The position numbers are program-made. Below, piece by piece: positions 53,401 through 59,400 of a DNA stretch of 64,000 nt. How positions within the stretch are numbered: position 1 is the stretch's first letter; the number at the start of each line of letters is the position of its first letter. This DNA comes from a plasmid. The DNA is taken from sequence record NZ_CP148139.1; one strand, given 5' to 3'.

Positions 53401-56400
53401 GCAGTACCTTCATCACCTGGGCCCGCTGGTCAGCATTCTGGAGGTAACGGGAAAGAAACGTTTCGTCATTTCGCGCCTGGATCAGACGGTCGGCAAAATA
53501 CGAACTGGTACGGGTGCTCACGCTGGTATCCAGTGCATGTTTTACGGCTTCGGTGATGATGGATACACCGGTTTTAGGATCGCAATGCGTCTTGGTGAAG
53601 CCGGACATTTTGCTGCGAACGTGCGCGATATCCAGCGTGGTTCCACCGATATCCACAATCAGCAGGGAGTCCAGATCGTCCAGATCCTTCAGCACACTGA
53701 AGCCTGCAGGGACCGACTCTGGCAGTACGCTGACTTTACGCACGGTAAAGCTCTCACGCCCCTGAACGGCCACCGCGCGCTTCACGTTCGCTTTTTTCCG
53801 CTCGATGTTGGCCATATTAGGCTGATCGTTTTCATCCAGGTACTCGCCCAGCGGCAGCGTCACCACAACATCAACCGGCTGCGGTTCAATGCCGGACTGC
53901 ATCAGGGCATGGTGGATAGCGACGACATTCACATCACTGTACTGATAGCGGGTTTCCGTGGTGCGCACGGCATCCGGGCTCAGCTGGTCAAAGCTGTACT
54001 TTTCCCCGTCAATTTCATAGTTGGCGGAAGCCGGCACTGATGAATCTGTCAGCAACGTCATGGACCATTCGGGCTTGAAGCTGTTCGGACTGATCAACGT
54101 TTTGACCGCACCATCTTCCATCCATGCCAGTTTGATGTTGGTGGAACCGTCGTCAACAAAAATACGCATTTTGAACCTCACATTATTTAGAAAAAAACCG
54201 TAGAAATCAGGAAAAATACAGCTTTCAAATGGATTATTACGCATCCCTGCTGACGTGTAAAGACAAAATGATGCACCAATATAGAAAAATACAGAAAAAT
54301 ACCGAATAAAAATCAACAAAAGACGGTCAGGCCGTCCTCAAAACGGCCTAATATAGAAATATGAGAGATTATTTTAGATTTATAAGGAAATAACAGGGAT
54401 GAATACGGATTATTCCGGAAGCGTTAGATGACTGTCTGGCAGGCTGAACCGGACGCCATACTGACGGCCGACATCGAGCGCAAACACGCGCGTGTAGGTT
54501 TCTGTGGTTTCCAGCCGGGAATGCCCGGCATAGGCCTGTACAACTTTCAGCGGAACCCCATGCTGGATCAGGTGCATACAGAAGCTGTGACGGAACGTGT
54601 GGCAGGTAACAGGGATACTAAAAGTGACAGAGTCACGTTTTGCGAGGTCCAGTGCCTTCCTGATCCAGTTACGCGGCGTGTTATCACTCTGCACCGGCCA
54701 GAGCAGCTGCTGTTTACCAATACGCAGGGTGGTCAGAAATTCACGCACCTTCCTGACATATTGAGGATCGGTCAGAGGAACAAGACGGAACACCTCTTCA
54801 TCCTTGCCCGGCCTGCCGCGGCCACGCTGACGCTGTTTAAGCGTCTTCAGCCGGACAAACGGCCGGGAACCGTCAAGCTGAAAGCTGGCGCCGGTCAGCG
54901 CCAGCGCCTCATTAATACGCGCGCCCGTGTTCCAGAGGGTATCGAAAAGGACCTGCTGGCGCAGGTCTGGCACATACCGCAGAAACACCGACACCTCCGG
55001 GGCCAGCAGGTATTTGGGTAAATCAGCCTGGCTGGCCATCTCCCGCAGCGCCAGCGCATCGGCATAATCGAAGTAGGCATATGTCACGCGCCCGGTCCCG
55101 ATGGCGTCGCTACGTGAATTCTGAGAAATTTGCAGGGGGAAAGTGTTCAATTTTTTAAAATCCGCTAATCAGCCGTCAGGCGACTGAATTTTATGAAATT
55201 TCTCGCTGAAATCGACCGCATCCTGCATATCAAACGTCATACTGCGGGTGGAGGCGGTCGAGCTCCAGCTTTTCCCGCCGCCGATCCCGTAAGGAGGTAG
55301 CGCCTGTCCGTGTAGCGGCTGGTTGTGTCGGGCTGCAAAAACCAGCTCCCCGACAGGTACTTTTAACATCATAGCAAACATATCCGCGCTGATTCGGCGG
55401 CCTTTCAATCCACTCATAACAACCTGTAACTGAATCCTGTACCACGACTTTTGTTGTAAATCTGCTGACCAGACTGACCTTCATCTTCACTGAATACCAC
55501 CATACGGCGGCCGTTAGTCAGTGAATCCATTTTACGCTGTGCGCCATTATCGTCATAACGCACAGGCAGGCACGCACCTTTATGGCTGTTTTCACTCTCG
55601 ACGCGGAACACCCTTACCCTGACGGCGTTCTTCCGCACCTGGTCAGGATCTTCACCACTGACCACACCCGTCAGTTTCTGAAGCGTATCAGCCGGACTGC
55701 TGTACTCAGCCTGGCTGAGATAGCGGCCGTTCGGGGTTAACCAGAAATCCTGGCTGTCACTGACACGGTAGGTTTCGCCGTGGCTGGCGATGCCTGAGAC
55801 GTTACAGAAGCGGTCATAATCGGTGGGCTGTCCGGGGAGCATGGCGCACCCTGTCAGCAACAGTGCCGGCAGGGCGGCGACGTATCCTTTGAATTTCATG
55901 TTGTCTCCTGTTCAGGTTGAACCATTTCGGCCGGTGGCCGGTATCCCGGATACGGGATAAACGGCGCATCGGTGGCAATAAGGTCTAGCAGCTTCTGGCC
56001 ACTGACCAGGATCATACGGCTGTCTCCGCGAATGAGCGATTTGGTTCCTTCGCGCGTTTTGCCGGTATGGCAGAAAAAACCGCGGGCACCGGTGGCGTTC
56101 AGCAGGTCGCTGAAGTCACGGACGTGGCCAACGGCAATATAGCTGGTATAGCGTTTGGCCTGGATAAGCCAGGTCTGGCCATCAATCTTCACACGGCCAT
56201 CAATCCCGCCGTCACCGGTATACCGGCGGTTACGGATCACTTCAAAGCCTCGGCGTTCAAAGCCTTCAAGCAGCAGCTCTTCGAACACAAACGGGTCAAT
56301 CTTGCGCAGATAGGCAATTTTCTGCCCGAAATGCGGAAACGTATTAATTTTATCGATCACACGTACCGCGCTGGCCTGTTTCCGTTCGTGCCGGCGCCGG

Positions 56401-59400
56401 CGTCGCCGTGTACCCAGCCAGAGGCCATACAGCAGGATACCCGCAAGGATAAAAGAGCCGACAACATGGATGGACTCATTCATTATCGATCCTCAGCACT
56501 TCATACTTCAGCTGCCGCAGCAGCCTGTCTTTGCTCATGGTTTTCAGGGTGGGCCATTCCGCTTTCAGCGTCAGCGCGACGGTGGCAAGTTGTATGGTCC
56601 GGGGTACTGTCTCACCGTCCTCATATTTTACCAGGCTGGTACGGCTGATACCGAGCTCAGCCGCGGCGCGTTCCTGGGTCCAGTTCAGGCCCCGTCGCCA
56701 CAGGATCAAGTCAAAGCCGGTCAATCCGCCGCACTCCCATGCTCAGTGCCGGGCTTCGTGCCGGCGGGTACGGCCTCTTTCCCCTGTGCCTTTTTTTCCG
56801 CCGGGGCCGGGTAGGCCGAGGCCAGTTGTGCCCGGAAATCACGCCACGCTGACAGCCAGAGCGCATCAGATACCTGGTCAGACGACAGATTAAGGACCGC
56901 ATTGCGGTCACGCCAGTGGCTAAATGTCTGAGCCGGCAGGCCGGCACGCCGGCGCAACTGCTGCTCGTCGAAATAGGCACACTGAACCAGGAGGTGTCTG
57001 ACGTTCTGCGGGACAACTTCATCCCTGGCCCCTTCCGGCACAGCCAGCATCCCGGCGCTGCATATCCCCTGAATGCCCGCCTCGGTATAAATCTGCTGCA
57101 GATTGGTATCATCACCCTGCGCAGCGCCGGCGGTGTGCGCCACAACCAGCATGATGCCGGCAATAAGTGGTTTCTTTATCATGCGTACTCAGCTCCTGGC
57201 CGAATCCTAGTGGACTGGCCTGTTATAATCTGCCTGTATTTATAGCCTGAAAATGTTCATATTTGAACATTTTTTATGTATATTAATTCCGCAAATTCGC
57301 CATAAACACAACAGGAGACACGATGGATATCAACTACTACGATGAACATCAGGAAGAATTTGAGGCGGTTAAACTGGCGCTGAAGGGCGAAATGGAGAGG
57401 ATCTGGGGCTCCATGCTGAAAGAACGCGGGGACAATCTGGATGATGAAGCCACGTACCTGAACCTGTTTGAAGAATTGCAGTATAACTTCTCTCCGTCCA
57501 GTTTCAGTAAGCTCACCCCGGCGCAGGAACTGGATAAAGATAAAATAGCGGCCTTTGTGGCCAGAACCCGCGGCTATAAGCACGGCATCACGATCAAATG
57601 CCGGCCGGGTCGCCCGCAGAAGTGGCTGAAAGGCCGAATCAAACCACTTGAGGACGCGGAAGGCACAAACCTGTGCTGGATCGACACGGCCACCATCGTG
57701 CATATCGGTGCCGGTCAGCAGTTTGACGATCAGTATTACCTCACAGTGACCACACAGACCGGGCAGAGTTACCGCGTGAATGAACTCCGTCTGCCAGGTC
57801 GTCTGCTGGAAGCAGCCCAGGACAGCCTGTTCAGGGCACTGGATTCAACCACCGGCGGTTACTTCTGATAGGGCGTTGCACCACGCTTATCGGGGATTTA
57901 TACTCGCAGTGATTAACAGATTAATTTTCCGTTTACTCCGACAGAAAGTTAAGTAATAAAAAGGTCTATAATTAAAAGGCGCCCTTCCTCACCAGTTGGA
58001 CGCCTTTTGTGTATGCATCATCAGTTATCTGTAAACCCTGAAAGAAGTGTGATGGACACGTCGTCTTCTTCACGCGCTACCATCACCGGTACATCCTTCC
58101 AGCGTGCCACGTTTTCTCCCCACTTTTGCAGGTCAGCACATGACAGATTGTGCCTCTGACATAACCTCAGAATGGTGTCATTCGAATACCAGTCTATGCG
58201 GGACAGGTGTTCACGGATCACCCATTCATCCCACGGCCGGCCGTCAAATGCAGGTTCACGCCGCCGCCATTCCGGATTGTTAATGACCAGATAATCGCCA
58301 ACATAAAGACGGTCGGTCAGCTGATATATATCAACGAAGCCAACCTCACTGTCAGGGATCACTTCCAGGAAGAGATAACCCGCTACGGGGTGTACCGCGC
58401 CCAGAAGCACCATAGGCTGAGTCACCATGTTATTCCCCCTGTTCGTCTTCAGCTGGCCGCCAGGCCCGCTGCCCTTTATAACCCAGTAGGGCTTCACACA
58501 TCAGATCGGTTATACGCGCAATCGCGTAATCCGCACTGTCAGCCCGCAGGGAAATCACGGCCGTTTCCCCCCGGTGCGCGGCGTTCCAGAATCCGGGCAG
58601 CAGCGTCTGGAACCGGGCCCGGTCATCCCCCTCCGACAGCAGGGCTGCATCCGGCAGTCGTTCGCGGATCACATCTTCACCGGCCTGACGCAGGATATCG
58701 TCACGACTCCAGATGCACAGCGTTGCCGGTCCGCTGCGCATGAGGATAGTAGCGGCGTCAGCCATACTCAGAGTATCCAGCTTCAGCATCTCCATGCCCG
58801 GCCGACGCAGCACGAATCCAATCGGCCGCCGGTACTTGCCCAGCTGCAGCAGATCGTCGTCCGTAAGCAGCTCCAGGCCACGCTGCAGGACAAGATGCAG
58901 TACTTCAGCCTCTTTAATCGGCCGCAGCAGCCCATGCATGGTGTTCGCTTTGACGGTCAGCGCCTCAATGCGATTCCAGAGCTCATCATTTATATGTTTG
59001 GTGGCCATCGGAATGCTCCCCGCCAAAATAAAACCGTTTTCCATCCGCTGCTTTGCCCAGGCATACCGTGTGACCCGTGGTTATCTGGCCGGCATCCATC
59101 AGGAACGGCGCGCCCGGACCGCGAAACACGTCCGGAGCGAGGGCAGCAGGTTCGCCGGCAGCGACCGGCCGGACCATGCCCATATCGTAACTGTCCGGCA
59201 GGTTATCCCGCAGGCAGGCCTGCGTGTAGTCGTCCGCGACCTTCTGCGCCTCTTCCTGCGTGGGGTAACGACCCAGCACGCCGGTGATCTCTTTCTTCAG
59301 TCCGAAGCCGTAGCCGCGAACCTTGTACGCTTCATATTCCATCCCGTTCACTCCGCTTGCCGTTGTTTACTGAATAACCATACTCTAATAAATTAGGTTT

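Follow-up and report, generated by a model that had tools for sequence, protein, structure and literature searches.

A predicted membrane-tethered Mrr_cat nuclease in the orf14-orf18 operon of IncL/M plasmids and its relatives in conjugative elements

Plasmid NZ_CP148139.1 was analysed over a stretch of 64,000 nucleotides (nt), here called the window, to whose full length all coordinates refer. On its minus strand lies a small operon whose third gene, orf16, encodes a protein of 195 amino acids (aa) in which a PD-(D/E)xK nuclease domain, Mrr_cat, follows a single predicted transmembrane (TM) helix. It is well supported that this locus belongs to the IncL/M (pOXA-48/pCTX-M3) backbone, as the accessory operon orf14-orf18(-resD): over 2.2 kb the sequence agrees 100% with IncL/M plasmids, pJEG011 among them, 1,368 PLSDB records match, and pCTX-M3 has the same operon, its Orf16 being 99% identical to the pOXA-48 protein. 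It is equally well supported that the family of Orf16 lives almost exclusively in conjugative plasmids and integrative and conjugative elements (ICEs) with several types of type IV secretion system (T4SS). The reading proposed here, with a probability of roughly 40%, is that Orf16 could be an autoregulated nuclease confined to the membrane which acts on DNA entering at the cell envelope.

Carbapenem resistance through OXA-48 is carried chiefly by pOXA-48-like IncL plasmids, in whose backbone about one gene in three is without a known role. One of these open reading frames (ORFs), so far labelled a restriction nuclease, is now seen as a member of a large conserved family of conjugative elements, found in IncL/M, IncN and MPF_F plasmids, MPF_G ICEs, and elements of Bacteroidota and Treponema (MPF, mating-pair formation). 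An anonymous ORF thereby becomes a testable hypothesis on mobile-element conflicts at the cell envelope. As far as the searched literature shows, the link of the family to conjugation machinery, a natural deletion lineage of the operon and the hypervariability of Orf14 had not been described.

Architecture and distribution of the Orf16 family

The initial annotation of the locus had described Orf16 as a protein with one TM helix, six consecutive arginines and an Mrr_cat domain, and the profile search bears this out. Pfam assigns Mrr_cat (PF04471, E 8.3e-21) to residues 59-169 over the full 115-position profile, as the sole significant Pfam domain, and NCBIfam returns nothing. Residues 1-58 are made up of the TM helix (hydrophobic residues 8-25), a basic helix (RRRRRR at 26-31) and a short linker, with no Mrr_N or other modification-reading domain; the unusual feature of Orf16 is a TM helix in place of the DNA-recognition domain. 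The catalytic domain contains E68/E69, GDGGIDG (D91, D95) and QAK (Q108, K110), and these residues, invariant in an alignment of the family, form an intact active-site motif. The AlphaFold2 model (pLDDT 93) consists of a 45-residue N-terminal helix, formed by the TM and basic segments, and an alpha/beta PD-(D/E)xK core. Foldseek relates this core to EcoT38I, archaeal Hjc resolvases, AF1548, Cdn1 and FokI, at the level of the fold only (all E >1e-3). A search of PDB sequences with the family profile gave spurious helical matches only, no solved structure being detectable by sequence. Orf16 is the conserved core of the operon, and its gene evolves under purifying selection in IncL/M-like plasmids (dN/dS 0.09-0.24).

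Orf16 is predicted to cross the inner membrane once, with seven N-terminal residues in the periplasm and the Mrr_cat domain in the cytoplasm (N-out, C-in), because a hydrophobic 17-mer is followed by a segment rich in lysine and arginine (positive-inside rule). No named defence system in PADLOC claims the operon, in keeping with what had been supposed; the best matches of Orf16, mREase_IV (2.8e-8) and PDC-S02 (3.6e-7), are partial and correspond to the C-terminal catalytic part of profiles of 317-390 positions (about 120 of 317 for mREase_IV).

A collection of 5.8 billion proteins returned 814 clusters for Orf16. Among the best 120 of them, with lengths of 104-241 aa, almost all have Mrr_cat only, many with an overlapping NA-iREase1 match. 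Judged by sequence, the family is one of proteins of about 185 aa composed of a TM helix, a basic stretch and Mrr_cat. In an alignment (A1) of 27 diverse members from Proteobacteria and Bacteroidota, a variable N-terminal stub and the TM helix precede a conserved basic segment, with the consensus RRxRRHxRKQxxAxRVLxKI, and a highly conserved catalytic domain; 28 columns are invariant, including E68/E69, G-D91-G-G-x-D95-G and Q108-A-K110. The GDGGIDG-type motif is present in 186 of 195 sequences, 182 of which also keep QAK. A clear N-terminal hydrophobic 17-mer was found in 158 of these 186, with a median of eight lysines or arginines in the next 20 residues, and most of the exceptions are truncated entries.

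Searches by tblastn found the family in 2,616 plasmids, 77% of them typed as conjugative, and gave no match in 50,697 phage records. When a single genome of each species was scanned, 284 genomes had a relative, and the neighbourhood was surveyed in the 75 best of these species-level loci in which an ORF was called. An MPF_G layout was recognised in 46 of these; a coupling protein lies within 7 kb in 47, and a coupling protein or a relaxase in 52. At least 60 of the 75 loci belong to conjugative or mobilisable elements, counting five IncN-type and three IncL/M-type fragments. In Serratia and Salmonella MPF_G ICEs the gene order is SLT, DUF2859, nuclease, x, type IV coupling protein (T4CP), DtrJ-like and RAQPRD, and in the Serratia loci the nuclease gene overlaps both neighbours by 4 bp. 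A Citrobacter MPF_F plasmid has the order SLT, TM, TM, nuclease, TM protein, and a Rhizobium contig the order TrbI, VirB11, T4CP, LPD7, VbhA, Fic, nuclease, relaxase. The Sphingobacterium copy is placed within a T4CP-bearing element. In further elements the nuclease gene adjoins TrwC or MobA relaxases, DnaG-like primases or topoisomerase III (TopoIII), and other loci have anti-restriction-like neighbours, or a primase and an integrase. A location in transfer operons is true of the MPF_G ICE and IncN homologues; the copy in the window adjoins resD-parMR instead. The nuclease is an optional insertion rather than a core T4SS part, because ICEclc, an experimentally dissected MPF_G element in which DUF2859 abuts iceD4, transfers without the nuclease gene.

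In the Rhizobium locus (Rhizobium skierniewicense, L007 3866-7540), on a plasmid-like contig, the genes directly upstream of the nuclease encode an LPD7 polyvalent protein and VbhA-Fic (FicT toxin/antitoxin type), which are candidate T4SS-delivered effectors.

The IncN plasmids carry a copy of 215 aa (TM, basic and Mrr_cat), 57-60% identical, in the kikA operon adjoining the T4SS genes, with the order H-NS-like, TM protein, KikA, lipoprotein, nuclease, 68-aa ORF. The kikA region of pKM101/pCU1 resembles the IncL/M operon in having a TM-Mrr_cat protein with an Orf18-like ORF after it (34% identity over 38 aa, BLASTP E 2e-5), and a secreted KikA and an LLTGC lipoprotein before it. On the other hand, no homology of KikA or the IncN lipoprotein to Orf14 or Orf17 is detectable, the gene order differs, and there is no adjacent helix-turn-helix (HTH) gene, the IncN operon being headed by an H-NS-like gene. 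Pilus production requires KikA, which is TrbM-like (PMC12288468). Many IncN copies are annotated as proteins of 169 aa that start after the TM helix (L005 4001-4594, pF404-4; clusters P0017, P0018, P0020 and P0032), but the tblastn alignment begins at residue 14 of the query, 84 nt before the annotated start; either the start codon was placed wrongly in the annotation or some IncN plasmids have lost the anchor.

The orf14-orf18-resD operon

The features of the locus are collected in Table 1. The four coupled genes of the initial annotation are all on the minus strand and overlap by 4, 8 and 4 bp (aTTGA at orf14/orf15, ATGAATGA at orf15/orf16, ATGA at orf16/orf17), with Shine-Dalgarno sequences (GGGAG, GAGGA and AGGAG) 5-9 nt before the starts, and Pfam and reading of the sequence agree with the products that had been named, i.e. 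a secreted protein, an HTH regulator of the XRE family (HTH_3, E 2e-7), the nuclease and a lipoprotein. However, the operon is longer than these four genes: orf18 is coupled to orf17 by a further 4-bp overlap (ATGA), and resD starts 18 bp past orf18. A consensus scan detected no terminator-like site between orf18 and resD and, since the first terminator-like hairpin comes only after resD, orf14-orf18 and resD are probably one six-gene transcript with resD as its last gene. A promoter scan gave no strong sigma-70 match upstream of orf14 on the operon strand, and an Rfam scan of 52-60 kb gave zero matches. RefSeq presents the same five ORFs, followed by resD, parM, stbB and nuc.

Table 1. Features of the operon and of the second Mrr_cat gene
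Feature	Coordinates	Strand	Description
orf14	56721..57182	-	153 aa; signal peptide and two conserved Cys
orf15	56476..56724	-	82 aa, TTG start; XRE-family HTH regulator
orf16	55896..56483	-	195 aa; predicted membrane-tethered Mrr_cat PD-(D/E)xK nuclease
orf16, TM helix	56409-56462	-	
orf16, R6	56391-56408	-	
orf16, Mrr_cat domain	55977-56309	-	
orf17	55414..55899	-	161 aa; lipoprotein, lipobox LLTGC, Ala at +2
orf18	55169..55417	-	82 aa; ATGA-coupled to orf17
resD	54410..55150	-	tyrosine recombinase (multimer resolution), Pfam Phage_integrase 9e-19
Terminator-like hairpin after resD	54327..54351	-	11-pair stem and T-run; consensus scan, inverted repeat
Perfect 24-bp palindrome	57250..57273		divergent orf13/orf14 promoter region; presumed Orf15 operator
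Second TM and Mrr_cat gene	25743..26678	-	311 aa, about 4 TM segments; Pfam Mrr_cat 5.4e-23

Methyltransferase matches are absent among the products of the operon and of the divergent orf13, and the RefSeq annotation of the flanking IncL backbone shows none. The statement that this is not a classical restriction-modification (R-M) layout stands, although a missing methyltransferase is weak as an argument, Mrr-type (Type IV) enzymes being solitary in any case. The description of the genes as uncharacterised holds as regards function, no functional data on them having been found in the pCTX-M3 papers or in the main text of the pOXA-48 study by CRISPR interference; nevertheless, they were already catalogued as pOXA-48 orf14-orf18. 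Baffert et al. 2025 label Orf15 'HTH-XRE' and Orf16 'Restriction nuclease / Host defense', on the basis of domains only (PMC12365149). In the transposon-insertion sequencing (Tn-seq) of pOXA-48, orf14-orf18 were all scored non-essential ('NE') and, with the columns as interpreted here, their log2 fold change (log2FC) on conjugation is +0.6 to +1.0; for orf16 the output/input log2FC, on the same interpretation, is +0.71 (adjusted p 0.25, not significant), and 7 of 7 TA sites of orf15 carry insertions (PMC12365149). According to these data the module is dispensable for replication, maintenance and transfer of the plasmid in laboratory E. coli.

Three leads in the literature proved unrelated to the operon. 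The pCTX-M3 transfer regulators orf35/orf36, considered as a possible identity of these genes, are located elsewhere, next to nikA and between traL and traM; 'Mrr' in a review of pCTX-M3 stands for 'multiple resistance region' and not for the nuclease domain; and the restriction-endonuclease-like proteins of a T4SS nomenclature review are MOBC relaxases only, a different family.

Besides HTH_3, Orf15 matches the NCBIfam RstR-like model (2e-8), below its cutoff. Over the promoter lies the palindrome AAAATGTTCA-N4-TGAACATTTT, with arms of 10 nt, 100% complementary and unique in the window. It is kept in IncL, in an IncM deletion variant and in a plasmid of Erwinia (TGTTCAtatcTGAACA; TGTTCA-N4-TGAACA). 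Three more distant relatives (L102, L103 and L101), whose HTH protein is only about 40% identical, have different palindromes at the same position (AGTATCAaatTGATACT, GTGCCAttcTGGCAC and GTGACAaatTGGCAC). Autoregulation by Orf15 is supported because the palindromes at the promoter covary with the HTH sequence, and Orf15 probably represses its own operon at this presumed 24-bp operator. Two other identities were considered for the palindrome: the pOXA-48 paper places a KorC site only at the korC promoter and, by reading of the sequence, its half-sites, spaced 4+10+4, do not agree with the LexA box CTGT-N8-ACAG. The divergent gene orf13 (57323-57868, plus strand), which adjoins the same operator region, encodes 181 aa with no family match; the protein is 72.9% identical between pOXA-48 and pCTX-M3, among the least conserved of the backbone. 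In the published Tn-seq, orf13 disruptions were significantly over-represented among transconjugants (log2FC 0.99, adjusted p 0.004; PMC12365149).

The layout recalls the C-protein/restriction endonuclease (REase) pairs of Type II R-M systems, since a gene of about 80 aa for an XRE-type HTH protein is located upstream of the nuclease gene and overlaps it by 8 bp, with a palindrome at the operon promoter. By analogy, this C-protein-like layout suggests autoregulated and possibly delayed expression of the nuclease. It differs from them in that the operon lacks a methyltransferase, the HTH gene is second and not first, the HTH gene outlasts the nuclease in the deletion variant (L017) and the layout is limited to IncL/M-like plasmids.

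Pfam, NCBIfam and PADLOC return nothing usable for Orf14, Orf17, Orf18 or the orf13 product, even at E up to 5. By inspection, Orf14 begins with a signal peptide, MIKKPLIAGIMLVVAHTAGA followed by AQ, with an AxA site (AHTAGA/AQ), and Orf17 has the lipobox LLTG/C at residues 14-18. At 90% identity orf14 forms 61 clusters, far above its neighbours. Its dN/dS against the allele of the window is 1.26 in L104 and 0.78 in L105, with values of 0-0.24 for the other operon genes, and positive (diversifying) selection on orf14 is suggested, from small counts. In L105 all flanking genes are nucleotide-identical to the window and only orf14 differs; by their sequences, recombination of orf14 alleles appears evident. 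The variable sites are those of the signal peptide, a small number of recurrently changed core positions and a tail rich in Pro, Ala and Lys, the blocks around the two cysteines being invariant. For Orf17 the 5.8-billion-protein collection contains no more than 19 clusters, all with an identity of 54-100% to the query. Its AlphaFold2 model (pLDDT 72), whose best Foldseek match was to ribosomal small-subunit proteins (E 0.08), allows nothing to be inferred. Orf18-like ORFs were found by a local hidden Markov model in IncL/M-like loci, in IncN-type loci and in one Serratia locus only. When orf17-orf18 (55169-55899) are compared with pOXA-48/pCTX-M3-type plasmids (L106, L020), dS is 0.25-0.33 and Orf18 is 84-87% identical in aa, whereas the flanking orf16 and resD have dS of 0.03-0.07, which points to a recombination patch.

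The initial annotation had expected the four genes to be conserved together, and this is true within IncL/M-like plasmids; elsewhere the nuclease has other neighbours, so that there is no portable four-gene system. The nuclease is 78% identical in the Erwinia plasmid and 68-73% identical in three metagenomic plasmids. The order in the IncL/M-like relatives is first gene, HTH, nuclease, lipoprotein, (orf18), ResD, ParM, StbB, and the ResD-ParM-StbB synteny holds wherever the contigs extend, that of L103 ending before ResD. The first gene is Orf14-like or encodes an unrelated multi-TM protein (L101, L103), and L101 has an additional 150-aa TM protein between the HTH protein and the nuclease. The HTH protein is 81% identical in the Erwinia plasmid and 40-43% identical in L102 and L103, where its gene is directly upstream of the nuclease gene. 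The lipoprotein, 52-76% identical in the relatives, is always encoded directly downstream of the nuclease in L021 and L101-L103. Finally, orf18 was found in two of the four relatives; it is absent from L101, and the contig of L103 ends first. Orf14, Orf17 and the HTH protein are confined to IncL/M-like plasmids, the nuclease having quite different neighbours elsewhere, and no adjacent HTH gene was found for it in the IncN, MPF_G ICE, Rhizobium or Bacteroidota loci. The envelope proteins Orf14, which evolves fast, and Orf17 are lineage-specific add-ons.

In about 288 PLSDB plasmids of an IncM sublineage, for example Serratia nevei pCUVET18-1371.3, three separate precise deletions remove orf14, orf16 and orf18, so that these three genes were lost together in one lineage. 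In the variant NZ_CP115012.1 (L017 3140-4060, corresponding to 55193-57210 of the window), orf16 is reduced to an in-frame fusion of 31 codons at a TTTATCC microhomology, which still overlaps the start of orf17 (ATGA). The operator, the HTH gene, the lipoprotein gene and resD are retained, and the one plasmid of the sublineage that was examined is typed as conjugative. The HTH protein and the lipoprotein do not serve the nuclease solely, because both are kept where orf14, orf16 and orf18 are gone.

Possible roles of the tethered nuclease

By their defining features, Orf16 is outside the Mrr-type enzymes, R-M systems, SNIPE, toxin-antitoxin pairs and core T4SS parts; as regards the last, it is not required for transfer according to the published Tn-seq, and ICEclc does without it. 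The closest functional parallel is the phage-defence protein SNIPE (PD-lambda-1), a nuclease anchored N-out in the membrane by a single pass, which cuts phage DNA as it is injected and is kept from self-cleavage by its tether, the protein being toxic without its TM helix (Nature 2026, PMC13190303). Like SNIPE, Orf16 would be a single-protein effector with a predicted N-out single-pass inner-membrane anchor and a cytoplasmic nuclease, and tethering is a plausible way for it to avoid self-cleavage. Unlike SNIPE, which has a GIY-YIG nuclease and a DUF4041 domain that binds DNA and tape-measure protein, Orf16 has neither of these domains but a PD-(D/E)xK Mrr_cat domain, and it is considerably shorter; its family is found in the backbones of conjugative plasmids and ICEs, often in T4SS operons, whereas SNIPE occurs in defence contexts.

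In the proposed mechanism, the tether would keep a nuclease of low specificity at the cytoplasmic face of the membrane, so that the bulk DNA of the host and of the plasmid itself would be spared, and Orf16 would cut DNA being threaded through the envelope. Candidate targets would be the DNA of rival conjugative elements, of phages that depend on pili or on the T4SS, or other incoming DNA, and such a nuclease would suit its carrier in that the transfer apparatus of a conjugative element is also a door for foreign DNA. A fuller version, in which the nuclease, carried by elements of many T4SS types, polices DNA entry at the inner membrane, destroys the DNA of rival elements or of pilus- or T4SS-dependent phages on arrival and complements entry exclusion as a plasmid-borne counterpart of SNIPE with another fold, and in which periplasmic Orf14 is the arms-race part in IncL/M plasmids, is rather unlikely as a whole. 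The concept of plasmid-encoded, membrane-associated DNases in conflicts between conjugative elements is shared by the Osa-type fertility-inhibition nucleases (pSa); Osa has an unrelated ParB/Srx fold with no known sequence similarity to Orf16 and acts on the outgoing T-DNA of the rival. If the entry-point role were true, the principle of SNIPE would extend to another fold and to conflicts of plasmids with plasmids or phages, part of the patterns of plasmid co-existence could be explained, and there would be a bearing on therapies based on phages or conjugative delivery against plasmid carriers.

A defence or exclusion role of the operon, as first suggested for it, is plausible but unproven, and several points weigh against the entry-point role. 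Orf16 has no counterpart of the DUF4041 domain that gives SNIPE targeting and DNA binding, and the model gives no account of how the protein would find entering DNA or spare host DNA close to the membrane; its topology is a prediction; and for every family member both the target DNA and the direction of action are conjectural. Besides, PD-(D/E)xK/Mrr_cat enzymes usually cut double-stranded DNA and conjugative DNA enters single-stranded. Repeated loss (the IncM sublineage and the absence from ICEclc) means that any benefit must be conditional, and the insertion into T4SS operons beside the coupling protein fits processing of the element's own DNA equally well.

Such processing is the first alternative, though an unlikely one: the tethered nuclease would be an accessory factor working on the DNA of its own element at the coupling protein. 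Its tasks might be the removal of transfer intermediates that have stalled or are aberrant, the processing of concatemers, or work with TopoIII, primase or ResD during establishment, and the gain in transfer would be limited to certain conditions or hosts. This agrees with the position of the nuclease gene in ICE T4SS operons, translationally coupled beside the genes for T4CP, SLT and DUF2859, with the relaxase, primase and TopoIII genes adjacent to it in other elements, with the presence of resD in what is probably the same transcription unit in IncL/M plasmids, and with a fold that resembles Hjc junction resolvases. On the other hand, disruption of orf16 caused no loss of transfer in the Tn-seq of pOXA-48, ICEclc transfers without such a gene, and the deletion sublineage lacks the nuclease and includes a plasmid typed as conjugative. 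Normal transfer was also reported for a deletion covering the kikA-ecoRII region of pKP33 (PMC5062321), which may or may not take in the IncN homologue. If this role were the true one, the family would be an unrecognised optional module of T4SS operons.

A toxin-antitoxin or abortive role is improbable. Orf16 would then be a latent toxin held in check by its tether and by low expression under Orf15, and it would be set free or over-expressed on envelope damage, sensed through Orf14 and Orf17, or on loss of the plasmid, with death of the cell as the result. The 8-bp overlap of the HTH and nuclease genes is as in many pairs of XRE antitoxin and toxin or of C-protein and REase, envelope proteins are probably co-transcribed with the nuclease, and orf14, orf16 and orf18 were lost together; the toxicity of SNIPE deprived of its TM helix makes it plausible that a released domain could kill. 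Nevertheless, there is no obligate pairing, as an adjacent HTH gene is missing outside IncL/M-like plasmids and the HTH gene persists without the nuclease in the deletion lineage. Transposon insertions in orf15 are tolerated, a weak argument given polarity on orf16, the plasmid already has PemIK and other addiction systems, and no protease or release mechanism is encoded.

The least probable role is that of an ordinary solitary Type IV modification-dependent restriction enzyme acting on modified phage or plasmid DNA anywhere in the cytoplasm with an incidental anchor, for although Orf16 shares with E. coli Mrr the catalytic family and motif (acidic residue, GDGGIDG, QAK, of the D...QxK type), matches Mrr_cat strongly and mREase_IV in part, and is annotated in databases and papers as 'restriction endonuclease / host defense', its TM helix replaces the N-terminal winged-helix (Mrr_N) reader, only TM and basic helix preceding the catalytic domain, the mREase_IV match is confined to the catalytic part of that profile, the anchor is not incidental because members from different phyla have kept both the TM helix and the basic stretch, and the niche of the family is in conjugative elements, with no phage-record matches and with conjugation genes, not defence islands, in the surveyed neighbourhoods.

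The second Mrr_cat gene and the cointegrate

The initial annotation had pointed to a second, unrelated multi-TM Mrr_cat protein and to recurrent recruitment of this architecture, and both are upheld, the latter strongly. The gene at 25743-26678 belongs to the MOBH/MPF_F backbone, the AT-rich part of the window, and its product resembles Orf16 at the level of the domain only (BLASTP E 0.095). Its homologues (about 27% identity) keep the synteny signal peptidase - hypothetical - hypothetical - TM-Mrr_cat, near traA or mobI, in other large plasmids, one of them typed MOBH/MPF_F and one typed MPF_T/non-mobilizable with mobI(A/C). Two unrelated conjugative backbones each carry their own membrane-anchored Mrr_cat protein, and each family keeps this association elsewhere. 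Genes for a GDSL/DUF459 lipase-like protein and a signal peptidase I (TraF-like) adjoin the second gene, and a DUF4365 protein and a site-specific integrase are found beyond them (26696-28338 and 29862-31647 for this set of genes).

The window is a cointegrate of a MOBH/MPF_F Providencia/Proteus-type backbone, from 1 to about 37.6 kb, and the IncL pOXA-48-like backbone. ORFs of IS26 size are found from about 37.9 kb, followed by the IncL CTX-M-14 plasmid, and the junction (about 37,600-40,500) contains two such IS26-sized ORFs together with aph(3'')-Ib, aph(3')-VIb and blaCTX-M-14. No PLSDB record covers this junction, the best coverage being 69%. The segment at 20-30 kb is 100% identical to NZ_CP072987.1, a plasmid captured in E. 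coli CV601 from dairy manure, whose annotation also matches further along and includes Hok/Gef, a MazEF pair and an Hcp-family gene.

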